Assembly: GCA_024275075.1 (NCBI GenBank) | Contig: JAJRZU010000070.1 | Span: 17,234-81,233 of the forward strand | Direction of reading: 5' to 3' | Origin: Deltaproteobacteria bacterium | GTDB lineage: Bacteria; Desulfobacterota; JAJRXV01 | Length of the DNA: 64,000 nt | Shown: positions 2,989 to 47,963 of the stretch, piece by piece | Layout of the letters: each line of letters opens with the position of its first letter | Position numbering within the stretch: the first letter of the stretch is position 1 | Program-made: the position numbers and the translations under genes | Notes under the pieces: generated by a model | What the model saw: only the letters and a program-made list of their open reading frames with translations | The model's database searches: none | What the model was told of the DNA's origin: nothing

Positions 2989-4677
2989 TTGATGAGTAAG
3001 AATTTTTCAACGGAAGCAAAAGTCGGTATCTTCGTCCTGTTAGGGATTGTAGCCCTGGCGTACATGTCGCTCAAGGTCGGTGAGATACGCATTGGCAAAG
3101 AGAAGGGTTACCGGTTGCGCGTACAGTTCACAAACGCTGGCGGGCTGCAAAGAGACGCCGCCGTACGCGTCGCGGGAGTCCGGGTCGGCAAGGTAGTCAA
3201 GATCTTCTTAAAAGATTCGAAGGCGCACTTGACATTGCTTATTAATAACAAGGTCTTTTTGGAGAAAGATGCGAGAGCGATGATAAAGACCTCGGGCATT
3301 CTGGGCGATAAGTACGTCGAGATACTTCCGGGCGTGGCAGAGGATTATCTGGTGGACGGGGATGAGATAATCAAGACCCTGTCTCCCGCGGATCTTGACA
3401 GTCTGATGAACAAGGTGACGGTGATCGCCGATGACATCAAGCAGGTCACAGGCTCATTAAGACACTCCATCGGTACTAAGGAGAGCTACGAGGATATCAG
3501 GCAGATACTGGTAAGTGTGCGGGATACCACGTCTCTGATGCGCGAGGTCATTAACAGGAATGATGAGAAGATCGAGCGGTTCTTCACCGATTTAGAATCT
3601 ATAAGTGGTAATATTGATGATCTTGTCAGGCAAAATGATGAGAAGGTGAGTAGATTCTTCACTAATTTCCAGGAGGTGAGTGATTCATTAAATGACCTTA
3701 TTAAGAACAATAATGATAATGTATCTGCGATCGTTGCGAATCTCAAGGGTTTCTCCGGTGACTTAAAGGATATCTCAGATGCGAACAAAGAATCATTAAA
3801 CGATGTTATATCTAACCTGCAATCCTTTTCTAACAGCCTTTCAGAAAAGACGCCAGAGATATTCGCTCAACTTAAGGAGATATCTAATAACATCAATCGG
3901 ATAGTCCAAGAGAACAAACCCGGGCTAAAAGAGGGCATCAGGAACATCAACACCGCGTCAGTGAGGTTAAAGGACACCCTTAATTCCTTGAAGAACGTCA
4001 CAAAAAAGATCGACGAGGGTGACGGTACTGTCGGTAAGCTGATCAATGAGGACACCACGTATAATAAACTGAACGATACCCTGGCCGGTATCAACAAGTA
4101 CCTTATCAAAGCCGATCAGTTCAAGACTATTGTGGATTTCCGCTCTGAGTACATGTCCGAGGCCGACGCTTTTAAGCACTACCTCACGCTACGTTTTCAA
4201 CCTAACCAGGACAAGTACTATTTTGTAGAGATAATCGATGACCCCGCGGGCGAAGTCACGACCACTGACAGGTACATCACCACCCAGGTCGGTGACGAGC
4301 CCGCGCAGACGACAGTCACTCACGAAGAGGTCGTCGAGGATAAGTTCAAGTTATCGATAGGTATCGCGAAAAGATACTATGACATGGTCATAAGGGGCGG
4401 GATAATAGAGTCTTCGGGTGGTTTCGGGCTGGACTACAACTTGTTTGACGATAACCTGAAATTGAGCGTGGACGCCTATGACTTCAACAATAACGATAAT
4501 ATCCACATGAAAGCATACGCGCAACTGAACCTCATGAAACACCTTATCGTTACTGCCGGTTACGATGATTTTGTAAAGCGCGACACTGACCCGTCATATT
4601 TCTTCGGCGCAGGCTTTACTTTTACAGACGACGATCTTAAATACCTGCTGACGAGTGTACCGCTGTCAAGCAGGTAG
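2989..4677 (+). CDS. mlaD: MCE/MlaD family protein with long coiled-coil and beta-rich C-terminal extension
   Basis: N-terminal TM helix, MCE domain (KVGIFVLLGI..LKVGEIRIG..RVAGVRVGKV), then about 300 aa of heptad-like repeats and a beta-strand-rich tail. 562 aa. Confidence 0.7.
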   Translation: MMSKNFSTEAKVGIFVLLGIVALAYMSLKVGEIRIGKEKGYRLRVQFTNAGGLQRDAAVRVAGVRVGKVVKIFLKDSKAHLTLLINNKVFLEKDARAMIKTSGILGDKYVEILPGVAEDYLVDGDEIIKTLSPADLDSLMNKVTVIADDIKQVTGSLRHSIGTKESYEDIRQILVSVRDTTSLMREVINRNDEKIERFFTDLESISGNIDDLVRQNDEKVSRFFTNFQEVSDSLNDLIKNNNDNVSAIVANLKGFSGDLKDISDANKESLNDVISNLQSFSNSLSEKTPEIFAQLKEISNNINRIVQENKPGLKEGIRNINTASVRLKDTLNSLKNVTKKIDEGDGTVGKLINEDTTYNKLNDTLAGINKYLIKADQFKTIVDFRSEYMSEADAFKHYLTLRFQPNQDKYYFVEIIDDPAGEVTTTDRYITTQVGDEPAQTTVTHEEVVEDKFKLSIGIAKRYYDMVIRGGIIESSGGFGLDYNLFDDNLKLSVDAYDFNNNDNIHMKAYAQLNLMKHLIVTAGYDDFVKRDTDPSYFFGAGFTFTDDDLKYLLTSVPLSSR

Positions 4678-4698: not shown

Positions 4699-5742
4699 AT
4701 GGTAAAGAAGTACGAGCTCGTTAAATCAGTCAGGTCTTCTGGGTGAGCAGGTAAACTAGGTCAGGCTGATCTAAACGAGGTGATATCGAAAATGAAGATC
4801 AAAGCGGACAAAAATGTGCTTGCCGCCGTGGATCACTTTGAGGATGCCGGTGTATACAGACTTACCGATGACATTGCGATCGTGCAGTCTGTCGATCTGA
4901 TTACGCCTGTTGTGGACGACCCGTACATCTTCGGGCAGATAGCCGCCGCGAACGCGCTCTCGGATATCTACGCTATGGGCGCGAAACCGGTCACCGCGCT
5001 GAACATCATCGGCGTACCGATCTGCGATTTCGGGGACGAGGTGCTCATAAAGATACACAAAGGCGGGCTGAAGAAGCTTGAGGAGGCGGGCTGCTCCCTG
5101 ATCGGCGGACACACGCTCGATGACCTGGAGCTGAAATACGGGCTTTGCGTCACCGGCACACTACACCCTGACAAGGTGTATTATAACAACAAGGCCGCAA
5201 TCGGGCACGAGATGATCATCACCAAACCCATTGGTAACGGTATTATCACAACCGCCGGTAAAGCGGGTATGGCTGAAGAGGGGGTTATGCAAAAGAGCAT
5301 CGACAGCATGTTGGCGCTTAACAAGGATGCGGGCGAAATAATGAAAAAATATGATGTAAGCGCGTGTACGGACGTAACCGGTTTCGGGCTGCTTGGCCAC
5401 ATGTACGAAGTTGCCCACTCTTCTGATGTCAGCGTCATGGTGGATCATGACAGCGTACCGGTTCTCAGTGGCGCTTATGAATACGCGAGCATGGGGCTTA
5501 TACCCGCGGGCAGTCACTCGAACGAACAGTTCCTAAAAGATCACATCAGCGCGCAAAATTCATTGGGGGAGACATGGCTCTCGATCCTTTGCGACCCCCA
5601 GACCTCGGGCGGGCTCATGATCTTTGTCAATAAAGAGCATTCAAAAAAACTTTTGAAAGATTTGAAGGATAATGGTATAGTAGATGCTCAGCTAATCGGC
5701 AATGTAATACAAAAGAGCGATAAATCCATTATAGTATCGTAA
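4699..5742 (+). CDS. selD: Selenide, water dikinase SelD; selenoprotein with in-frame UGA (Sec) at 4744-4746
   Basis: ATG at 4699 after an AAGGAG ribosome-binding site. Translation reads [21 protein letters not shown]..; the U and K align with Cys17/Lys20 of E. coli SelD (GCGCK). Downstream the sequence is in frame with the track ORF 4780-5742, which carries SelD motifs ([23 protein letters not shown]). Confidence 0.8.
4757..4773 (+). promoter_or_regulatory. Candidate SECIS-like hairpin 10 nt downstream of the selD UGA
   Basis: UAGGUCA-GGC-UGAUCUA: a 7-bp stem (one G-U pair) with a triloop, immediately 3' of the Sec codon. Not matched to the E. coli SECIS consensus. Confidence 0.25.
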
Positions 5743-5770
5743 TACATTTCTTTTTATAGAGGGGGAGATA

Positions 5771-7333
5771 TTGTCAAAGATAAAATTAGCGCTTATCAGC
5801 GTTTCAGATAAGAGCGGTATTGTTGAATTCGCGAAACAGATAAATGAGATGGGCGTAAACATCCTCTCGACAGGCGGCACCGCGAGACTGCTCATGGAGA
5901 ACGGTATATTTGTAAAGGATGTCTCTGAACATACCGGGTTCCCGGAGATGCTCGACGGCAGGGTCAAAACGCTTCACCCGAAGATACATGCCGGTCTGCT
6001 CGCAATCAGGAACAATCCGCAGCACATGAGCAAGATGAAAGAGTATGACATCGACCCGATCGATATGGTGGTGGTGAACCTGTACCCGTTTGAAGCTACT
6101 ATCGCGAACCCGGACTGCGAACTTGAGGACGCCATCGAGAATATCGATATCGGCGGCCCCACGATGCTCCGTTCCGCGGCGAAGAACTACCAAGACGTTT
6201 CTGTGATCGTCGACCCCGCGGATTATGAGAAGGTCGTGCGAGAGATGACTGATTCTGGCGGCGGCGTATCGATCGCGACAAACTTTTATTTGTCGAAGAA
6301 GGTGTTTTCGCACACTGCGAGGTATGACAGCATAATCGCGAACTATCTTGGTACGGTCAACGAGAACAAAGAGAAGAATGAGTTCCCGGACACGCTTAAC
6401 CTGAATTATATAAAGGCGCAGGATCTGCGCTACGGTGAGAACCCGCACCAGATGGCCGCTTTTTATAAGGAGCATAAGGTGGAGGAGCCCTGCGTCTCGA
6501 ACTCTGTCCAGCTTCAGGGCAAAGCGCTCTCGTTTAATAACATTATCGATATCGACGCGGCTTATGAAACGGTGAAGGACTTACCGAAGAATGCCGCTGT
6601 CGTGATCAAGCATACGAACCCGTGCGGGGCGGCTATATCTGACGAGAGCCTTCTGGACGCTTACAAAAAGGCGCGTGCGACAGACCCGGTATCCGCGTTC
6701 GGCGGCATCGTCGGGCTTAACAAAAAGGTGGACGAAGCGACGGCGGCGGAGATAATCACGACGTTCATCGAGGCGGTCATCGCACCGGACTACGACGAGG
6801 CGGCGCTCAAAGTTTTCACCGAAAAGAAGAACCTTCGGATACTGAAATCGCCGCCGCTTGAAGCTTATATAAATAGCGGGTATGACCTGAAAAAGGTTAC
6901 CGGCGGCCTGCTTATCCAGACGCGCGACACCGGCATGGTGGATATCGGCGGGTGCAAGGTTGTGACAACAAGGGAGCCGACCGAAGAGGAGCTCACGGCG
7001 CTCGACCTCGCGTGGAAGATATGCAAACATGTGAAATCAAATACTATTGTATACTCTGCCGCCGACCGGATAATCGGTGTCGGCGCCGGTCAGATGAGCC
7101 GTATAGATTCCGCGAAGATAGCCGTGATGAAGGCGAACTCCCCGATAAAGGGTACTGTGATGGCGTCAGACGCGTTCTTCCCGTTCAGAGACGGGGTAGA
7201 CGCCGCGGCAAAAGCCGGTGTCACCGCGGTGATACAACCCGGCGGCTCGCAAAGGGATGATGAGGTCATCGCCGCCGCGAACGAGCACGGCATGGCGATG
7301 CTCTTCACCGGTATGAGACACTTTAAACATTAA
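5771..7333 (+). CDS. purH: Bifunctional AICAR transformylase / IMP cyclohydrolase PurH
   Basis: MGS-like N-terminal domain ([11 protein letters not shown]) plus AICARFT domain. 520 aa full length. Confidence 0.9.
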
Positions 7334-8289: not shown

Positions 8290-9777
8290 TTGAGTACCAA
8301 AGATGAACTGATGGCAAATTCAATTTTAGTGGTTCACACCTCAGATAAGGTGCATTCCTTTTTTAGTGATTATTTTAAAGAGGAAGACTGCACAATCAGC
8401 CATGAAAAAGACGGCGTTCATGCGCTGAAAAAAATCATTGACAATAAGCCAAACCTGATATTGATGGGGGTCGCTATACCTGTCATGAATTATCAGGACA
8501 TATTAAGGATAATAAAAGGGGGCCAAACCGATTCTTTTGTATGCCTTATCGGTGATGAAGGCAAGAATAAGATACCGGTGCTAAATTCGGGCGCCGACGC
8601 GTTCATCGAGCAGCCCTTGCAGATAGATGCCGTAAAAGAGACGATCGACAAGCTTTTACTAAAACAGAAGATCAGAAGACGAAGTTTGGCAAAGACGCAA
8701 AAGTTCTATAATTCGAAGACATATTTGATCCATCTCTTAGAACAGATCACCATCGCGATAATATCCGTGGACAACAACGGCAGGATATTATCATTTAACC
8801 AGAAGGCTGAAAAGCTCTGGGGCTACCAAAGCAACTTCGCGATTGGCAGGCACTTTGATATCCTGTGCATCAGAGAGAACCGGGACAAGTGCGCCTGTGT
8901 CTTCATCGAAGAGACGAGGAGAAACAATTCTTATGAGGGTATCTTGTTGTTTGAACGCGCGGACGGCACCAAGTTTGCCGGTGAGCTTCAGACCTCGGTA
9001 ATAAAAGGTGACAGTGGCAACGAGGGTATCGTGGTGGTGATAAGGGACCTTACCAAACAGCGTATACTTGAGGAGAAACTGTTAGAGAAAGAGAAACTGG
9101 CGACATTAGGCGCCGTTGTCGAGGGGGTTGCTCACGAAGTAAGGAACCCGCTCATCACTATCGGTGGTTTTGCCCGAAGGATCCTAAAGAAAGTCAGCAG
9201 TGATTTCCCGTACATACATTATCTGAAAGTCATCATTGAAGATGTCTCAAGGCTTGAATCGATGGTAAAGAATATTGAGAGTTATGTTCATTTCGCCAAG
9301 CTCCATAGAGCAAACTTCAAGAAGGGTCGGATAGAGAAGATAGTAGAGACCGCGGTAAATTTAATTGACAAGAAGCTGTTAAATCATATAGATATGAACT
9401 TTGAATTTGACCCCGCTGTCCCGCAGATGTACCTGGATGTCGGTTATCTTGTCGAGACATTCTTTAACATCATTGAGAATGCTGTAGAATCCATGCCAAA
9501 TGGCGGGGCTGTAACGATAAAAACCTCCAGGGACGATTACAATTATTGTGTTGTCAAGATCATCGATACCGGACGCGGGGTGCCAAAAGATCATGTTGAC
9601 GATATTTTCAATCTATTCTATACTACAAAACCATCAGGTATCGGGCTTGGTTTGGCGAAGGCGCATATAATAATCGATGAGCACAATGGAAGGATCAGCA
9701 TTAACAGCACCAGGGGACACGGTACGACAGTCACCGTTACTCTGCCGCTTGAGAGAAGACAAATAATCAGAAGGTAA
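8290..9777 (+). CDS. Sensor histidine kinase with degenerate N-terminal receiver-like domain, PAS, HisKA and HATPase_c
   Basis: H-box HEVRNPL; G-box motifs DTGRGV and GIGLGLA. The N-terminal REC-like fold has Gly where the phospho-Asp is expected (LILMGVAIPV). Confidence 0.8.
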   Translation: MSTKDELMANSILVVHTSDKVHSFFSDYFKEEDCTISHEKDGVHALKKIIDNKPNLILMGVAIPVMNYQDILRIIKGGQTDSFVCLIGDEGKNKIPVLNSGADAFIEQPLQIDAVKETIDKLLLKQKIRRRSLAKTQKFYNSKTYLIHLLEQITIAIISVDNNGRILSFNQKAEKLWGYQSNFAIGRHFDILCIRENRDKCACVFIEETRRNNSYEGILLFERADGTKFAGELQTSVIKGDSGNEGIVVVIRDLTKQRILEEKLLEKEKLATLGAVVEGVAHEVRNPLITIGGFARRILKKVSSDFPYIHYLKVIIEDVSRLESMVKNIESYVHFAKLHRANFKKGRIEKIVETAVNLIDKKLLNHIDMNFEFDPAVPQMYLDVGYLVETFFNIIENAVESMPNGGAVTIKTSRDDYNYCVVKIIDTGRGVPKDHVDDIFNLFYTTKPSGIGLGLAKAHIIIDEHNGRISINSTRGHGTTVTVTLPLERRQIIRR

Positions 9778-9781
9778 AAAT

Positions 9782-10420
9782 ATGAAATGCCCTAAATGCG
9801 GTTTTGTCAGCTTCGACAAATTAGAAACATGTAAAAGGTGTAAGCACGTTTTTGCGATAGAAGAACCTGTGCCGAAGCACTCGTTCCTTGCTAAGATGAA
9901 GGATATTTTGAAAAAAGAGGACGAAAAGACCGTCTCGCAAAAAGAGGTTAAAGAGCAGGAACCGGAACCAGCGCCACAAGAAGTAGTGCCCGCACCGAAA
10001 GAAGAGGTATCCGCGGCGCAGGCGAAGGCGGCCGTTGCAACTGCGTCTTTAGTGGATAGTTTTGATGATAAGTTTGACGACCTCTTTGGTGAAGATAAGT
10101 ACGCGGTAAAGGAGAGCGAAAGCGACGCGATAAAATTAACGGCGGTCGACCGGTATACACAGCAGCAAACGAAGCCTGATAATACCGCGGCAAACGGTTA
10201 TAACTTTGATGATTCATTCTTTAAGGTGACCGGCACGTCAGAGGAAGAAGCTGATGAAATGCTTCAGGAAGATAATGTTGAGGAGCCGCTTGTCGAGAAA
10301 AAGGAAGAGGAAAGCGCTTTCAAAGGTGGTCAGGAATTTCACGAGGTATTGTCTGATGATGTAGATGCTGATGACGATCTTATAGATTTTGAAATAGATG
10401 ATGACGAAAAAAAAAACTAA
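9782..10420 (+). CDS. Zinc-ribbon protein (CPKCG..CKRCKH) with acidic low-complexity tail; probably the N-terminal part of a zinc-ribbon-RDD protein
   Basis: N-terminal CxxC..CxxC motif, then a Glu/Asp-rich linker. The gene ends in an A10 run (10407-10416) before TAA. Confidence 0.6.
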   Translation: MKCPKCGFVSFDKLETCKRCKHVFAIEEPVPKHSFLAKMKDILKKEDEKTVSQKEVKEQEPEPAPQEVVPAPKEEVSAAQAKAAVATASLVDSFDDKFDDLFGEDKYAVKESESDAIKLTAVDRYTQQQTKPDNTAANGYNFDDSFFKVTGTSEEEADEMLQEDNVEEPLVEKKEEESAFKGGQEFHEVLSDDVDADDDLIDFEIDDDEKKN

Positions 10421-10422
10421 AC

Positions 10423-10902
10423 GCGCAACTTCGTGACCTGACCGATAAATTAAACGCCTCTGGCAGCCGCGGCGCTTTTATCGCGCAAAGCGCGGTTGCC
10501 GGTAAAAGAATATATGCGTTTATCGTAGATATCTTTTTCATAGTTTTATTAAACGTCTTGATCTTATCAATTGTCGCATCTCTTAACGCAAATGAGCTAT
10601 CCAAGAAGAGCCTTGATATTGAGTTCATATATTTTACTCTCTTCCTGACAACATTTTTGTACCATACTTTATTGCTCTACTTTTTCAAAAGGACATTAGG
10701 CTGCACTATCTTTGACCTTAGCATCGTGAAAGACCATGACGAACCGGTGGGGCTAAAAGATTGCTTTATCAGGTTCTCCGGGTTGCTATTGAACATCATG
10801 ACTCTTTTTATATTCGATATCATAGTGATTATGACCGGTAAGGGGCGCCCATTGCAGGACTCGTTCTCAAATACACGCTTAGTTACAGAACATGACAAAT
10901 AA
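10423..10902 (+). CDS. RDD family membrane domain (no own start codon; in -1 frame relative to upstream zinc-ribbon ORF)
   Basis: RDD signature GKRIYAFIVDIFF in frame 1, beginning right after the A10 tract. No ATG/GTG/TTG lies between the upstream stop and the conserved domain. Confidence 0.55.
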   Translation, partial: AQLRDLTDKLNASGSRGAFIAQSAVAGKRIYAFIVDIFFIVLLNVLILSIVASLNANELSKKSLDIEFIYFTLFLTTFLYHTLLLYFFKRTLGCTIFDLSIVKDHDEPVGLKDCFIRFSGLLLNIMTLFIFDIIVIMTGKGRPLQDSFSNTRLVTEHDK

Positions 10903-12532
10903 TAATAGCAGGCTAAACAGCATATCGCAAAGATACCCTGATATCTGGCGGTGGGTAATGCTCATTGTCATCCTGGCGCTCTCCGTCTTCGTACGCGTCC
11001 ACCTCATCGATGTACCACTTGAGCGTGATGAGGCGGAGTACGCGTATTCCGCGCGCTTCTTGCTCAAAGGGATACCGCTGTATACGCAGTCTTACGAATT
11101 CTTGAAGCTGCCGGGGCTTTACGCCATATACGCAGTGTTTTTGGGTGTCTTCGGCAATTCCGCCACGGGTATCCACACCGGCCTGCTTGTCGTGAACAGC
11201 CTCACTGTCATCCTGATATTCTTCCTGGCAAAACGCCTGATGGACACCACGGCAGGCATCACCGCAAGCGCAACGTTCGCTCTTGTCTCATTGAGCCAGC
11301 GGGTACTGGGTATCTCGACAAACGCCGAACCGCTATTATTGTTACCGGTAGTGGGCGGAACGCTTTTGCTGCTAAGAGCGATGGAGTCGCGCAGGCTGAA
11401 GGATTTCTTCCTCAGCGGGCTTGTGCTTGGAATGGCGGCGATAATCAAACAACCCGCCTTCTACTTTGTCGCGTTCGCCCTCTTTTACCTTGTATATTCA
11501 CAGATGGTCAAAGACAGGCTACGCTTCTCACAATGCGCCGCGAAGCTTGAGATTTTTGTTCTTGGTATCATCATACCTTTCGCTTTAGTCTGCGTCTTCA
11601 TGCAGCTGGCCGGTGTCTTTGACAAATTCATTTTCTGGACGTTTGAATACGCCCTGGCTCACGGGTCGGTAAACTCGCTTTCAAAAGGGTTTGGGATCTT
11701 TCGCAGCATAGCTCCATGGATAATAGCGCCGGCATCTTTGTTCTGGTTCCTTGCCGCCGTTGGGCTGTCGGCGATATACTGGGATGATGCGGCGCGAAAG
11801 CACGCGGTTTTCCTGATAGGATTCCTGGCCGCCTCCTTCCTTGCGCTCAGCCTCGGCCTCTTTTTCAGGCCGCATTACTTTATCCTCACCCTCCCGGCTG
11901 TCGCGCTGTTGACCGGTACCGGTGTCAGCTCGCTCACGAGGCTGATGAAAAGAAGCGGCGATAACCCGGTAATTAAATGGGCGCCGGTAATAATCACGGC
12001 ATTGGCGGCAATCGTATTCCTCGCAAGTGAAGGGGACTACCTCTTTTTTCAGAGCCCGCACGAGGTATCACGCTCGACTTACGGCGCCAACCCCTTTGTA
12101 GAGTCTATCAAGATCGCGCGATATATAAAGGAGCGGACATCTCCAGACGACCGCATCGCGGTGCTCGGTTCCCAGCCGGAGATATTCTTTTACGCCGACC
12201 GGCTCTCGGCAAGCAGGTTCACGGTGCTGTACACCCTTACCGGCGGGAATAAGTTCGCGGTCGAATTGCAAGAAGAGATGATCCGCGATATCCAGGCCGC
12301 CCACCCGAAATACCTGGTGTATGTGAACACACCGGCGTCATGGGCAATCGCCGAAGGTTCGAAGATACTGCTGTTTAGGTGGCTTAAAGCGTATGTCCCA
12401 ACACGATATGACCGTATCGGTCTCGTTGATATCCTTTACCCTGAGCCGTCAAAGTACTATTGGGACGCTGATCTGGCAGGTGTTCAACCAAGCTCCAAAC
12501 TTTGGATCTCCATATATAAAAGGAAGGAATAG
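10892..12532 (+). CDS. GT-C family glycosyltransferase (PMT/ArnT-like, family 39) polytopic membrane protein
   Basis: About 12 TM helices. ERDEAEYAYSA (DE motif in the first loop) is typical of ArnT/PMT_2 glycosyltransferases. Confidence 0.7.
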   Translation: MTNNNSRLNSISQRYPDIWRWVMLIVILALSVFVRVHLIDVPLERDEAEYAYSARFLLKGIPLYTQSYEFLKLPGLYAIYAVFLGVFGNSATGIHTGLLVVNSLTVILIFFLAKRLMDTTAGITASATFALVSLSQRVLGISTNAEPLLLLPVVGGTLLLLRAMESRRLKDFFLSGLVLGMAAIIKQPAFYFVAFALFYLVYSQMVKDRLRFSQCAAKLEIFVLGIIIPFALVCVFMQLAGVFDKFIFWTFEYALAHGSVNSLSKGFGIFRSIAPWIIAPASLFWFLAAVGLSAIYWDDAARKHAVFLIGFLAASFLALSLGLFFRPHYFILTLPAVALLTGTGVSSLTRLMKRSGDNPVIKWAPVIITALAAIVFLASEGDYLFFQSPHEVSRSTYGANPFVESIKIARYIKERTSPDDRIAVLGSQPEIFFYADRLSASRFTVLYTLTGGNKFAVELQEEMIRDIQAAHPKYLVYVNTPASWAIAEGSKILLFRWLKAYVPTRYDRIGLVDILYPEPSKYYWDADLAGVQPSSKLWISIYKRKE

Positions 12533-15594: not shown

Positions 15595-18573
15595 ATGATA
15601 AATAAAATCGAAGTATCGCTAAAGCCGTTTATAAGGGACGTGCGTGGGGAATCTGTTAGAAACGGGATCTCGAACTATCTTCACGTGGACGTTCAAGATG
15701 TAAGGATAATCGATACTTATATCCTCGAAGGTGACTTCACTGACAAAGAGATCGTCAGTATCGCTTCTAACCCCCTGTTAGACCCTGTAATACAAATGTT
15801 CTCGATCAACAAACCGATAAGCGGGGACTTTGATTTCATCATCATGGTGGGGTTCCTCCCCGGCGTCACCGATAATGTCGGGAGAACCGCGAAGGAAGCT
15901 ATCGGCACCTTTCTGGGCAGGCCTTTCGCAGACGGTGAAGGCGTTTACACCGCGCAACAGTATCTCATAAAAGGGGCGCTTGATTATGATGACGCGAAAA
16001 AGATCGCCCATGACCTTTTGGCCAATGAACTCATACAAAGCTTCCAGGTAATGTCGCAGGCTGACTTTTTGCGTGAGGGCGGCTTTGTGACAACCGCACC
16101 GAAAGTCAGCATCCTGCTTGAGGCGAAGGTGGATGAGATCGACCTGAACATCCCTGACGACGAGCTTGTCAAGTTAAGCAAAGATGGTCTTTTGGCGCTC
16201 TCATTAGATGAGATGAACACGATCAAAGATCACTTCAACGATGATGAGTTCATCTCACAAAGACGAAAGGTCGGCCTGACTTCCCGCATCACCGATGTCG
16301 AGCTTGAATCACTGGCGCAGACATGGTCTGAGCACTGCAAGCATAAGATATTCAACGCTGACATAGACTATACTGATGAACTTGGTATTACCACCAGAAT
16401 CAGCAGTCTTTTTAAAACATATATCGTCAACTCGACGAAGAAGATTCGGCGAAGTAAGGGTAATAACGATTTCTGCCTCTCCGTCTTCAAGGATAACGCC
16501 GGTGTCATCTCGTTTGATGATAACCACAATATCGTACTCAAGGTTGAGACTCACAACAGCCCTTCCGCGCTTGACCCGTACGGCGGCGCCCTTACCGGTA
16601 TCGTCGGCGTCAATCGGGACCCGTTCGGCACCGGTCTCGGCGCGAGGCTGATATTCAACACCGATGTCTTTTGTTTCGCCTCGCCATTTTACGATAAGGA
16701 GCTGCCACCGAAACTGTTGCACCCGCGCAGGATATATGAGGGTGTCGTCACCGGTGTCGAGCATGGCGGTAACAAGAGCGGCATACCGACTGTCAACGGT
16801 ACGGTCGTGTTCAATGAACGGTTCCTTGGGAAACCGCTCGTCTTCTGCGGCACCGGCGGTATTATGCCGAAAACGATCAACGGCAGGCTCTCCCATGAGA
16901 AGAGAGCGAATGCCGGTGACCTCATCGTCATGACCGGCGGCAGGATCGGTAAGGACGGCATCCACGGCGCGACATTCTCCTCTGAGGAGCTACACGAAGG
17001 CTCACCGGTGACGGCAGTGCAGATAGGCGACCCGATAACGCAAAAGAAGATGACGGACTTTCTGCTCATAGCGAGGGATCTTGGGCTCTACAGCTCGATC
17101 ACAGATAACGGCGCTGGCGGGCTCTCGTCATCCGTCGGTGAGATGGCCGAAGACTGCGGCGGGTGCCGGCTTCACCTTGACAAAGCGCCCCTGAAGTACA
17201 GCGGGCTCCAGCCATGGGAGATACTCGTCTCCGAGGCGCAGGAACGGATGACGCTCGCGGTGCCCAAGGAAAACATCGAGCGGTTCATGGAGCTGGCGAA
17301 GACTATGGATACTCAGGCCACCGTTTTAGGGGAGTTCACCGACACCGGTATCTTCCACATCCTGTATGAGGATAAAACGGTCGCGTACTTAGAGATGGAG
17401 TTCCTGCATCACGGCCTGCCCCCGATGAACCTGACGGCGAAGTTTGAGACGCCGCGTCACACCGAACCTGACCTGCCCGATTAGGTAGACATAAAGGATA
17501 CTCTTCTCAAGCTGATGAGATCATTAAATATTTGCAGTAAGGAATCGATCGTGAGGCGGTATGACCACGAGGTGCAGGGCGGCAGTGTCATAAAGCCGTT
17601 TGTCGGCGCAACGAACGACGGGCCGTCAGACGCCGCTGTTTTGCGGCCTCTCCTTGAATCGTTCAAAGGGATAGTCGTCTCGAACGGGATATGCCCGGAG
17701 TACAGCGACATAGATACGTATCACATGGCGGCGTGCGCGATCGACGAGGCGGTACGAAACGCTGTCTGCGTGGGCGGCGATATCGAGCACATGGCGGGGC
17801 TTGACAACTTCTGCTGGTGCGACCCGATAAAGAGCGACAGGAACCCGGACGGCGAATACAAACTCGCGCAGCTCGTCAGGGCGAACAAAGCGCTCTACGA
17901 TTACTGCACGGCCTACGGAATACCCTGCATCTCAGGGAAAGACAGCATGAAGAACGATTACATAATGGGCAGCTTGAAGATATCGATACCACCGACCCTG
18001 CTGTATACAGTGTTTGCCACGATCGATGACGTCAGAAGAGCCGTGACGATGGATTTCAAAGCAGCGGGCGACTGCATATACATCCTGGGCATCACAAAGG
18101 ATGAGCTCGGCGGCGGCGAATACTATAACCTGCTTTGCGCTACGGGCAACACAGTACCGAAAGTCGATGCGAACGCGGCCTACCACCGCTACAAAGCGGT
18201 ACTGGCCGCGATGAAAGAAGGGATTATCCGCTCATGCCACGACGCGTCCGACGGCGGGATCGGTGTGGCTATCACCGAATCCGCATTCTCTGGCGGGTTC
18301 GGGGCAAAGATCGACCTGACAAAAGTGCCTTGCGGCGATATCACAAGGGATGATATAATACTGTTCTCAGAATCGCAAAGCCGCCTGATCGTCTCAGTCA
18401 GCCCCAAAGATGAAAAGCGGTTCAGGTAGATCATGAGCGCGGATGCCTATGCCCGGATCGGAACTGTAACAGACAAAAAAGAGCTGATAATCAAAAGATT
18501 GGACAAAAGCAACGTGACTATCGATATAGATACATTAAAAAAAGCATGGCAAAAGCCGCTAAAGGGGTTATAA
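15595..18573 (+). CDS. purL: Fused PurS-PurL phosphoribosylformylglycinamidine synthase, interrupted by two in-frame TAG codons (17482-17484, 18427-18429)
   Basis: The N-terminal ~80 aa resemble PurS (VSLKPFIRDVRGESV..VQDVRI). PurL AIR-synthase domains run in one frame across both TAGs (..EPDLPD*VDIKD..NICSKESIVRRYDHEVQG..; ..EKRFR*IMSADAYARIGTVTDK..LKKAWQKPL). True stop TAA at 18571-18573. Confidence 0.8.
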
Positions 18574-38568: not shown

Positions 38569-40347
38569 GTGAACAAAAAAAAATCGATAATGGCGGTCAT
38601 CGCTGTTATATTCATATTTATGGCTGTTGCGGCACACGCTGATATCACTATCAGCGCCGATGTGGACAAGCGGCAGGCTTCATTGGAAGATACTTTCTAT
38701 TTGACCGTAACAGTGGGCGGAACAAGATCCACAAGCGCACCGCCGTCAGTGTCCGGCGCCGGCGCTTTTGGCATCACATACCGCGGTTCGAGCAGCAAAG
38801 TATCCATCATAAATGGTACGATGTCCTCTGCTATTGAATATAACTATGTACTCCTCCCAAAAAAAGCAGGTACGTTTCGACTCCCCCCGATCATTCTCAG
38901 GCACGACGGGGAAATATACAAGACCGCCCCGATCGAGCTGGTAGTCACGAAACCGGCGGCGGAAAATGCCGCGAAGGATATTTTTGTCACGGCGGAGATT
39001 TCGAACAGCTCGCCATACGTCAACGAGCAGGTCATATTTACTTTCAAATTTTTCACCAGTGTCCAGATAGCAAACGCTACTTATGAGAATCCCGTGTTTA
39101 AAAATTTTATTACTGAGGATTTGGGAGAAACGAGTAGCTACCAGAAAGTGATCAATGGGAAGCAGTACACGGTAAACGAGGTAAAATATGCTTTGTTCCC
39201 GCTGAAAGCCGGTGAATATCCTATCGCACCGCTCAAAGGTAAGGCGGACGCCGTTTACCGAAGTAAGCGGCGCGGGCGTAACAGTAGCATCTTTGACAAT
39301 CCGTTTTTTGGCGGGTATGCTGAGACAAAGCCCGTCTACTTCCAGACAAATGAGCTCAAGCTAAACGTGAGTCCGTTACCTGAATACACTAACAAAGAGG
39401 TGCCGTTCTCTAACCTGATCGGTGAGTTCAAGATTACCGCATCACTTGGTACGAGGTCGCTTGATGTAGGGGATTCCACAACGCTGACCGTAACGGTGCA
39501 CGGATACGGTAACATCACGGACGCCGCGTTCCCAAAGCTGTCCGAGCTGAAGAATTTAAAGACGTACGACGACAAACCGGTGGAGGATATAAAAGCGACT
39601 AAGGGCGGGATATACGGGTCTAAGACGTTTAAGAAGGCGTTTATCCCGTTAAAAGAGGGTAAACAAAAGCTTCCGGTGATAAAATTCTCGTATTTTGATA
39701 CAAAAAAGCGTGATTATGTGGTCTTATCGACACCTGAATATACGCTTGATGTGAGCCCGTCTTCAGTGCAGGAGAACATGAACCTTGTCGAGATGGTCGG
39801 CAGGACGACCACCAAGGAAGCGGTAAAAGTCATCGGTATGGATATATTACCGATCAAGGCATCGATAAATTCGCTTAATAATGAGGAGTTCAGGCTATTC
39901 TCCATTGTGAATGTATTGATAGCGTTGATGCCCGGTTTACTTTACATGGTCTTCATGTTTTACGCCAGGCAAAAAGAGATGCACCTGGCGGACGCGAACA
40001 TCCTGCGAAGAAAAAAAGCATACAAGAAATTTACGCAGGCGACGGGTAATTTAAACAAGCTGATAAAAAATGATTCCACTGAATTTTATGGTATGCTATT
40101 AAACTCGTTAAAGAATTATATCGGTGATAAATTAAATTCCGTCGGCAGCGCCATGACACCAAAGGAAGTTGCAGCCGCCCTGGCTAAGAACAACATCCCG
40201 CAGGATGTTATTCGTAAGGTGGCAGATGCGATGGAGAGATTAGAACGGGCGCAATTTGCGTCTGTAAAGCTTTTGGCGGCAGACAAGAAGCAATTGGTAA
40301 AAGTTTTGTCCTTCGCGGCAAAAACGATTGAGAGACGGGTTAAATAA
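38569..40347 (+). CDS. batD: BatD (oxygen-tolerance protein), full length
   Basis: 592 aa. Signal peptide, BatD beta domains, a TM helix and a C-terminal cytoplasmic helical domain. Confidence 0.8.
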   Translation: MNKKKSIMAVIAVIFIFMAVAAHADITISADVDKRQASLEDTFYLTVTVGGTRSTSAPPSVSGAGAFGITYRGSSSKVSIINGTMSSAIEYNYVLLPKKAGTFRLPPIILRHDGEIYKTAPIELVVTKPAAENAAKDIFVTAEISNSSPYVNEQVIFTFKFFTSVQIANATYENPVFKNFITEDLGETSSYQKVINGKQYTVNEVKYALFPLKAGEYPIAPLKGKADAVYRSKRRGRNSSIFDNPFFGGYAETKPVYFQTNELKLNVSPLPEYTNKEVPFSNLIGEFKITASLGTRSLDVGDSTTLTVTVHGYGNITDAAFPKLSELKNLKTYDDKPVEDIKATKGGIYGSKTFKKAFIPLKEGKQKLPVIKFSYFDTKKRDYVVLSTPEYTLDVSPSSVQENMNLVEMVGRTTTKEAVKVIGMDILPIKASINSLNNEEFRLFSIVNVLIALMPGLLYMVFMFYARQKEMHLADANILRRKKAYKKFTQATGNLNKLIKNDSTEFYGMLLNSLKNYIGDKLNSVGSAMTPKEVAAALAKNNIPQDVIRKVADAMERLERAQFASVKLLAADKKQLVKVLSFAAKTIERRVK

Positions 40348-47252: not shown

Positions 47253-47963
47253 ATGCTTATCCGGTTACAGAAAATAATTTCAGACGCGGGGATAACCTCG
47301 CGCAGAGCGGCTGAGGAGCTGATAACAGCCGGTAAGGTACGCGTGAACAAAGTTGTGGTGACGAAACTTGGCGCCAAAGCCGACCTGGAAAAGGATGTTA
47401 TCACCGTAAATGGCCGCACAATAAAGCCGACACAAAAAAAAATCTACATCATGATGCATAAACCTGTCGGTTATGTGACGACAATGAAGGATCCGCAAGG
47501 CAGAGCGGTAGTCACCGACCTCCTAAAGGGCGTCAGGGAGCGGGTCTACCCTGTCGGCAGGCTCGATTACGATTCATCAGGGCTTCTGCTCTTTACAAAC
47601 GACGGTGAGACAGCGAACAAGCTCGCGCATCCGCGGCACAAGGTTTCTAAGAGATATAAAGTGAAGATCAAGGGGAAGCTAACCGGTGTGGAGCTTAGAA
47701 AGCTGCGAAGCGGTGACCCGAAGCTCGGTTTCTTCGCGCCGGTCGAGGTATATGTAGACACTGCCCTGCCCAAAAACACGTGGCTTGTCATAACCATTGC
47801 GCAAGGGAAGAACCGGCAGGTGAGAAGGATGTGTGAATCTGTCGGGCATGATGTGCTAAAGCTTATACGCGAATCTTATGGTGAGCTTACGCTCGGCGCC
47901 TTGAAACCCGGGGAGTTCCGCCACCTGACACAGCATGAGATGCGGTATTTGAAGGGAGTGTAA
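47253..47963 (+). CDS. rluB: 23S rRNA pseudouridine synthase (RluB/RsuA family)
   Basis: S4 domain (ITSRRAAEELITAGKVRVN) plus catalytic RLDYDSSGLLLFTNDG motif. Confidence 0.85.
   Translation: MLIRLQKIISDAGITSRRAAEELITAGKVRVNKVVVTKLGAKADLEKDVITVNGRTIKPTQKKIYIMMHKPVGYVTTMKDPQGRAVVTDLLKGVRERVYPVGRLDYDSSGLLLFTNDGETANKLAHPRHKVSKRYKVKIKGKLTGVELRKLRSGDPKLGFFAPVEVYVDTALPKNTWLVITIAQGKNRQVRRMCESVGHDVLKLIRESYGELTLGALKPGEFRHLTQHEMRYLKGV

Follow-up and report, generated by a model that had tools for sequence, protein, structure and literature searches.

How should a run of ten adenines (A10) be read when one half of a gene ends upon it and the other half continues from it in another frame? The question is raised by a stretch of 64,000 nucleotides from an uncultured Deltaproteobacteria bacterium (assembly GCA_024275075.1, contig JAJRZU010000070.1, positions 17,234 to 81,233), hereafter called the window, in which an open reading frame (ORF) for a zinc-ribbon protein runs into an A10 tract and a stop codon, and a membrane domain of the RDD family follows in the -1 frame. 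The tract could mark the place where a gene was broken, by mutation or during assembly, or it could be a place where one gene is decoded in two ways. In our assessment it is probably a retained recoding site, by which one gene would give rise to two proteins. Positions are those of the window, or of the respective contig for the related loci, and window features lie on the + strand.

The zero-frame ORF (9782-10420) encodes 212 amino acids and corresponds to the short product. It starts with a CxxC-x10-CxxC ribbon (MKCPKCGFVSFDKLETCKRC), the zinc-ribbon module as a whole spanning 9782-9853 (MKCPKCGFVSFDKLETCKRCKHVF, with Cys3, Cys6, Cys17 and Cys20), continues through a long acidic linker and ends in ...DDDEKKN followed by a stop, the last codons being ...GAT GAC GAA AAA AAA AAC TAA. 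A Shine-Dalgarno-like AAGG motif is located about 10 nucleotides 5' of its ATG, and the zinc-ribbon ORFs generally have such a motif at around -10. The A10 tract, at 10407-10416, is the longest homopolymer in the window and contains the heptamers A AAA AAA and A AAA AAC (10411-10417) in the zero frame, and the zero-frame TAA (10418-10420) abuts it. The tract and the end of the zinc-ribbon ORF, as described in the original prediction, are read directly in the sequence.

The -1 frame is closed directly 5' of the tract by TGA TGA (10399-10404) and then forms an extension from 10405 to 10902, consisting of about 29 linker codons, a complete RDD domain (PF06271; 10492-10866, residues 30-154 of the extension) and a TAA at 10900-10902. 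The RDD domain had been described as starting immediately after the tract, which has to be amended in view of the intervening linker codons. The accompanying statement that it has no start codon of its own holds: the first ATG, GTG or TTG of this frame is a TTG at 10558-10560, which lies inside the first transmembrane helix (TM1), 3' of the R...D motif, and without a Shine-Dalgarno sequence. Because the zero and -1 frames overlap only at 10405-10420, that is, at the A tract, the tract is the sole possible joining point. One inserted A yields a continuous protein of 373 amino acids, in which the zinc ribbon, the acidic linker and the RDD domain are contiguous, as had been predicted, and this fused protein matches the Pfam RDD model PF06271 with its residues 238-362 (E=2.2e-14, profile positions 2-135 of 137). 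At least one A10 occurred in 28 of 100 shuffles of the 64-kb sequence, so that an A10 as such is unremarkable; it is the position of this one, where the two halves of a gene meet, that exceeds chance.

Ancestry of the two reading frames

When the -1-frame RDD peptide alone was used as the query in a HMMER search of 1.84 billion representative proteins, 71 RDD proteins were returned, all of them at most 37% identical to the query except one fragment. Eleven of the 71 (P0014, P0016, P0018, P0019, P0021, P0032, P0041, P0042, P0051, P0053 and P0055) are single ORFs that start with MKCPxCG[FY].[ST].[DE]..xxCK[KR]C and proceed through a variable linker to a C-terminal RDD domain. A search for RDD homologues carrying an N-terminal zinc ribbon in one continuous ORF had been suggested as a check, and these eleven carry it. 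Since eleven distant RDD homologues are single ORFs with the same zinc ribbon, the descent of the zinc-ribbon ORF and the RDD frame from one ancestral gene, now split across the A10 tract, is strongly supported by homology. Pairwise BLASTP comparison of the ribbon of the upstream ORF (P0001) gave E=3e-9 against P0041 and E=5e-9 against P0021, and K2, C3, P4, C6, G7, C17, K18 and C20 are near-invariant in an alignment with the single-ORF proteins (alignment A1); the Pfam zinc-ribbon models gave only sub-threshold scores on the window ribbon. Single-ORF proteins such as P0016, P0021 and P0041 share with the window gene the MKCPxCGF.SF..L..CKxC ribbon, an acidic or low-complexity linker and a C-terminal RDD domain with the conserved R, D, T.G, R and D. 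However, they are continuous, whereas ribbon and RDD domain in the window, and likewise in the related locus L162 described below, are not one continuous ORF but lie in separate frames that are joined only across A10.

The RDD frame in the window bears the features of a complete domain. Starting from 10405, the -1-frame peptide scores 57.2 bits against PF06271 (gathering cut-off 24.1; profile positions 2-135 of 137), compared with 37.8 bits when it starts from the TTG at 10558. The start-less 5' part, which makes up the first quarter of the domain, thus supplies about 19 bits of the RDD score and holds the invariant R243 and D250 as well as most of TM1. In alignment A1, the residues R243, D250, T305, G307, R331 and D360 (numbering of the fused protein) are invariant or nearly so, and all six are present in the window.

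Conservation of the junction and selection on the -1 frame

Four syntenic relatives were found by using the adjacent gene, which encodes a PMT_2 glycosyltransferase, as a handle and then retrieving the contigs. The first, L162 (JGI 3300041077, a metagenome), has a PMT_2 protein 52% identical to that of the window and contains a histidine kinase gene, a zinc-ribbon ORF, an RDD domain in the -1 frame and the PMT_2 gene. Its layout is that of the window (A10, TAA, RDD in the -1 frame): the zinc-ribbon ORF encodes 274 amino acids and ends in TTA GAA AAA AAA AAG TAA, with A10 at 2210-2219, and the -1 frame is closed by a TGA three codons 5' of the tract. L001 (ENA), which is close to L162, covers only the 3' part of the RDD frame and PMT_2. 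In L164 (GCA_024276115.1; PMT_2 46% and PurSL 77% identical) the synteny is full, with kinase, zinc-ribbon-acidic ORF, PMT_2, purC, MCP and purSL genes; here the zinc-ribbon-acidic ORF encodes 306 amino acids and ends in GAC GAA AAA AAA TAG, with an A8 and without RDD. The corresponding ORF of L163 (ENA) ends in ...DDDEENDI and a stop, and has neither an A-run nor an RDD domain. The C-termini of the window (DFEIDDDEKKN), L164 (HFEIVENDEDEKK) and L162 (EEIVKDDPLEKKK) are homologous, and in these three lineages the stop codon stands directly 3' of the lysine run, as TAA in the window and in L162 and as TAG in L164. Because L164 ends at the homologous ...DEKK-stop without RDD, the short protein appears able to stand alone, and with the ORF being kept without RDD in both L163 and L164, the short form appears to fit a protein that works on its own.

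This lineage is poorly sampled. Queried with the fused protein, a collection of 5.8 billion proteins yielded the gene itself (P0001) as the sole match, and a profile of the zinc-ribbon-acidic ORFs also recovered the gene itself only, low-complexity EEPEEP words having swamped the candidate list. RDD-specific peptide patterns had no match in genome and metagenome contig collections. None of 160 loci with a related PMT_2 (at most 45% identity, from genome and metagenome scans) had an adjoining zinc-ribbon-RDD gene, and the contigs retrieved for P0076, P0078, P0079 and P0080 were incomplete or non-syntenic.

The original prediction had considered a homopolymer sequencing error equally possible. 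In that case the true tract would be A11 and the gene an ordinary single-ORF zinc-ribbon-RDD gene, which would be in line with long homopolymers being a classic source of insertion and deletion errors, with the single-ORF homologues in other phyla and with an unexplained in-frame TAG in the purSL gene of the window (see below). Nevertheless, such an artefact has become much less likely, and we regard it as very improbable, for four reasons. It would have to have arisen again in the independent assembly of the very divergent L162, because that contig shows the same A10, TAA and -1 layout. Three lineages share the zero-frame stop exactly after the lysine run, and with a tract of A11 each of these stops would have to be put down to coincidence. 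A pseudouridine-synthase-like gene elsewhere in the window contains an A9 (47434-47442) in frame and is intact, and no other genes were seen to be split at homopolymers. Indeed, no frameshifted gene was seen among the approximately 48 long ORFs elsewhere in the 64-kb window, the same-frame neighbours that were checked being distinct genes (e.g. ScpA/ScpB and OppD/OppF).

Substitution patterns were then compared between the lineages. Between the window and L162/L001, the proportion of synonymous differences (pS) is saturated at about 0.8, and the proportion of nonsynonymous differences (pN) of the RDD frame is 0.29-0.37, next to 0.31 for PMT_2, 0.23 for the kinase and 0.45, above RDD, for the zinc-ribbon ORF. 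In the closer pair, L001 and L162, the ratio of nonsynonymous to synonymous substitution rates (dN/dS) is about 0.2 for RDD (0.08/0.41) and 0.24 for PMT_2. Judged by these figures, the RDD frame is under purifying selection comparable to that on its neighbours, which implies that the -1 frame has been translated for most of the time since the lineages split. In both lineages, the -1 frame is free of stop codons from the tract to the candidate internal start (chance about 0.07 and 0.05). These candidate starts, the TTG at 10558 in the window and an ATG at 2334 in L162, are non-homologous, have no Shine-Dalgarno sequence and cut off the R-x6-D motif.

These data bear on the alternative that the site is dead, or that its two parts are expressed separately: a one-nucleotide deletion in the A-run would have truncated the fused gene, the short protein would be the sole product of the upstream ORF, and the RDD frame would be decaying or self-initiated at an internal or near-cognate start. 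L163 and L164, which lack RDD and keep the short ORF, could represent the outcome of such a process, and lesions in the RDD frames of L162 (a 25-codon deletion) and L001 (an in-frame stop) could represent its course; moreover, the ATG at 2334 is called as a start in L162 and the TTG at 10558 is present in the window. Yet the window RDD is complete with all its invariant residues, the pN of 0.29-0.37 at saturated pS and the dN/dS of about 0.2 amount to long-term translation in frame, and the start-less stretch contributes its share of the RDD match. The internal starts would also lose part of TM1 along with the R-x6-D motif, and they lie at non-homologous positions without ribosome-binding signals, so that we consider this alternative unlikely. 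An RDD protein with its own start codon in related genomes had been named beforehand as an observation that would speak against the prediction; the ATG at 2334 of L162, chosen by a gene caller, resembles such a start superficially only, since a protein begun there would be without the R-x6-D motif, and no Shine-Dalgarno sequence precedes the ATG. Near-cognate starts for a separate RDD protein (CTG at 10438, and ATC and ATA codons) were rejected, having neither a Shine-Dalgarno sequence nor an equivalent in L162.

Several observations weigh against a retained recoding site. The junction layout is known from two lineages only, both of them consensus assemblies of uncultured organisms, and the A-run is partly accounted for by the coding of the conserved ...EKK(K/N) C-terminus, an A8 being present in L164, which has no RDD. 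The linker between the tract and the RDD domain gave a local alignment score of 42 compared with 20 +/- 4 for shuffles, about half of which came from the tract-encoded RKKK, so that beyond RKKK no conservation of this linker was detected. In the RDD frame of L162, an in-frame deletion of 75 nucleotides (25 codons) near 2425 removes the second transmembrane helix (TM2) and the T.G motif, leaving a sub-threshold score of 15.5 bits; in that of L001, an in-frame TAA at 120-128 with an ATG directly after it (..LYYI-stop-MFYFF..) falls at the same spot as the L162 deletion. The assembly or genome is also not flawless, as the purS-purL fusion (15595-18429) contains a single in-frame TAG at 17482-17484 (...EPDLPD-stop-VDIKD...).

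With regard to the lesions, the codons flanking them in L001 and L162 have a dN/dS of about 0.2, and the lesions themselves may reflect recent decay, population variants or assembly noise. A stretch 3' of the L164 stop (CTAAtCGCGCcAC) that might be left over from the RDD linker was not significant (173 of 2000 shuffles). As to purSL, the L164 homologue has a Ser at the position of the window's TAG and reads through; for the TAG, a nonsense variant, readthrough and an error of the assembly or consensus all come into consideration. TAG ends normal-length genes in the window, for example PMT_2. Reassignment of stop codons was considered for the in-frame stops and rejected, because TAG and TAA both close normal-length genes here.

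Mechanism of the frame shift and predicted products

If the tract is a recoding site, standard decoding of 9782-10420 would stop at the TAA after A10 and produce a soluble protein of 212 amino acids, the zinc ribbon with its acidic tail. Some expression events would instead involve a -1 shift within the tract, and translation would then run on through 10405-10902; the resulting long product of 373 amino acids would carry the identical ribbon and linker, anchored in the membrane by the three helices of the RDD domain. On the one hand, this shift could come about through the insertion of a single non-templated A by RNA polymerase (A11), with A8 transcripts being equivalent. On the other hand, the ribosome could slip by -1 on A AAA AAC. 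The -1 slip and the added A would give the same product except for one junction residue (K versus N), the peptides being ...DDDEKKKLNAQLR and ...EKKNLNAQLR. The sequences show the anatomy, the descent from one gene, the recurrence of the layout in a second lineage and purifying selection on the out-of-frame RDD; that slippage takes place, how efficient it would be, which mechanism would be at work and that both isoforms would be functional is inferred.

Transcripts with A8 to A13 were modelled. The long protein results from A11 or A8 only (373 amino acids in the window and 422 in L162), and those with A9, A10, A12 or A13 end within 0-5 codons, giving 212-218 amino acids in the window and 274-277 in L162, an arrangement known from genes that depend on slippage (PMC1088944). 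A homopolymeric A/T run of at least nine bases within a coding region is the length criterion for transcriptional slippage (PMC1088944). In the window the run has at least nine A's, a start-less downstream ORF is reached through it and the other frames are closed. The run and the frame arrangement recur in the diverged L162, the one additional lineage that covers the junction, and the downstream frame is under purifying selection.

A heptamer of the X XXY YYZ type is present in the zero frame of both lineages, as A AAA AAC (10411-10417) in the window and as A AAA AAG in L162. Efficient -1 ribosomal frameshifting usually needs a stimulatory structure, which slippage on nine or more A's does not (PMC1088944, PMC4256274). 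No stimulatory hairpin or pseudoknot was found within about 45 nucleotides of the tract and nothing there is conserved between the window and L162, the fold from 10417 onward having -2.5 kcal/mol over 44 nucleotides (z = 0.06). The only strong hairpin, a GC-rich one at 10462-10500 (GGCAGCCGCGGCGC...GCGCGGUUGCC), lies in the linker coding region about 45 nucleotides 3' of the tract; the fold of about -27 kcal/mol that it dominates does not stand out from shuffles (z about -1 to -1.7), and L162 lacks the hairpin. Likewise, no GGAGG-like, Shine-Dalgarno-like stimulator is visible 5' of the tract in the window or in L162, and neither Rfam nor tRNA scans of the window produced a match. Because there is no stimulatory RNA structure near the tract, transcriptional slippage appears more likely than a -1 ribosomal slip.

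The same anatomy, with both alternative frames closed promptly, would also be expected if the length of the tract changed in the DNA itself, replication slippage switching between A10 (short protein only) and A11 (full-length protein) and thereby creating heritable ON and OFF subpopulations. Homopolymers of at least nine bases mutate at high rates and serve as contingency switches. However, the tract is exactly A10 in both independent population consensuses, of the window and of L162, and no length polymorphism was seen; the organisms, as far as the metagenome sources indicate, are free-living environmental bacteria, whereas such switches are typical of host-adapted pathogens. Phase variation is quite improbable as the explanation, and it would not displace transcriptional slippage on this tract but occur alongside it.

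For the retained recoding site, the following history can be envisaged. The starting point would have been a single-ORF gene of zinc ribbon, linker and RDD, like those of other phyla; at the base of this clade, the lysine run at the C-terminus of the linker would have become a slippery tract with a zero-frame stop, producing a short form and a slippage-dependent long form; RDD would later have been lost in L163 and L164, with the window keeping it intact. More tentatively, and as something a little short of an even chance, the A10 would set a fixed ratio of soluble to membrane-tethered protein in a conserved and so far undescribed recoding event, both forms would act in the operon, and some relatives would have dropped the tethered form. 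A series from fused, through split at an A-run, to RDD lost would then illustrate how a homopolymer could mediate the loss of a domain without an abrupt loss of function.

Comparable systems and genomic context

To our knowledge, only a few cellular bacterial genes that are neither mobile nor viral have conserved frameshifting or slippage, among them prfB, dnaX, copA, mxiE and tssM. Programmed -1 ribosomal frameshifting on A AAA AAG or A AAA AAC occurs in Escherichia coli dnaX, in IS1/IS911 and in copA, the last of which makes from one gene a soluble protein of the N-terminal domain and a full-length membrane protein; in copA and E. coli dnaX, the shift yields the short form. The heptamer of the window and of L162 is the canonical one of these genes, and copA resembles the present case in deriving a soluble and a full-length membrane form from one gene, but here the shift would yield the long form. 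The signals of such genes further include a hairpin or pseudoknot at 5-9 nucleotides and/or an upstream Shine-Dalgarno-like stimulator, neither of which was found in the window or in L162.

Genes that use transcriptional slippage are likewise close in layout. In tssM1 of Citrobacter rodentium, an A11 precedes a premature stop, transcriptional slippage has been shown and both length variants are required (Gueguen et al. 2014, PMC4256274); the argument from missing stimulators that favours slippage here was applied to that gene as well. The tssM gene of C. rodentium and Yersinia pseudotuberculosis is, as here, a cellular non-mobile gene with a poly-A run directly 5' of a premature stop (A11 there, A10 here), has no Shine-Dalgarno or RNA-structure stimulators, gives a truncated protein by standard decoding and a full-length one with its C-terminal domain when A's are added, and keeps this arrangement in a second organism (PMC4256274). 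It differs in that tssM is a membrane component of the type VI secretion system with slippage proven by experiment, whereas the zinc-ribbon-RDD gene is known from its sequence alone. In Shigella flexneri mxiE and Thermus thermophilus dnaX, slippage on T9/A9 generates heterogeneous mRNAs and two products (Baranov et al. 2005, PMC1088944). The longer product of mxiE needs a non-templated base, as would be the case here, and T. thermophilus dnaX likewise has stops close by in the other frames (PMC1088944), although in that gene the templated reading gives the long form. Both have functions unrelated to the present gene and are experimentally established, in contrast to this purely sequence-based case. 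Poly-A frameshifting of the mxiE/tssM type is already known, and what is new is most likely the protein family and the uncultured lineage.

If the recoding site is real, the choice between a soluble and a membrane-anchored zinc-ribbon protein would be made by slippage, in an uncultured lineage that has been poorly sampled. The RDD family, whose function is obscure, would thereby also acquire a testable role, that of anchoring a soluble regulator to the membrane or acting as its partner. The only characterised RDD protein that we know of, that of Halobacillus andaensis, reportedly functions as an ion/H+ antiporter. The support for recoding comes from computation and from just two lineages, and its appeal is to recoding specialists. 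Annotation pipelines call the locus as a hypothetical protein of 212 amino acids, with the RDD domain either overlooked or given a wrong start. In the public protein collection that was searched, the 212-amino-acid ORF is the only one found as a called protein (P0001), the 114-amino-acid RDD ORF started from TTG is absent, and no RDD match from the source genome was returned.

The gene lies between two operon partners. Upstream is a hybrid histidine kinase of REC-PAS-HisKA-HATPase architecture (8290-9777), which is the neighbour in L162 and L164 as well. Downstream is the GT39/ArnT-like PMT_2 membrane glycosyltransferase (10892-12532), whose first 11 nucleotides are shared with the end of the RDD frame; its synteny is kept in L001, L162, L163 and L164, and homologues of the zinc-ribbon ORF are found at the corresponding place in the operon in L162, L163 and L164. 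The biological role of the zinc-ribbon/RDD gene is probably linked to this operon with the histidine kinase and the GT39-like glycosyltransferase. The three-gene block of kinase, zinc-ribbon(-RDD) gene and PMT_2, with overlapping gene ends, spans 8290-12532 in the window, 61-4281 in L162 and 3507-7641 in L164. It is set among purine genes, with purH upstream and purC and purSL downstream in the window, and purC and purSL downstream in L164.

Repeats and further homopolymers were also observed. The acidic tail of the L164 zinc-ribbon protein (ORF at 5033-5953) contains an internal duplication (EAEDFLTDFIGADD... / EAESFLSDFIGIDE...) and the linker of L162 a long (EEP)n expansion; as far as these sequences indicate, the zinc-ribbon linker is fast-evolving through repeats. 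In the window, an A9 at 38575-38583 lies just 5' of the ATG of a gene starting with the signal-peptide-like MAVIAVIFIFMAVAAHA, in a short gap after the preceding ORF, and is probably part of a 5' untranslated region or intergenic. The 12.9-kb L164 locus has four A9/T9 runs, at 6892-6900 and 8794-8802 on the + strand and at 1155-1163 and 3306-3314 on the - strand. At least two of them lie within the coordinates of called genes (PMT_2 and MCP), and it seems that coding sequences in this lineage can accommodate runs prone to slippage.

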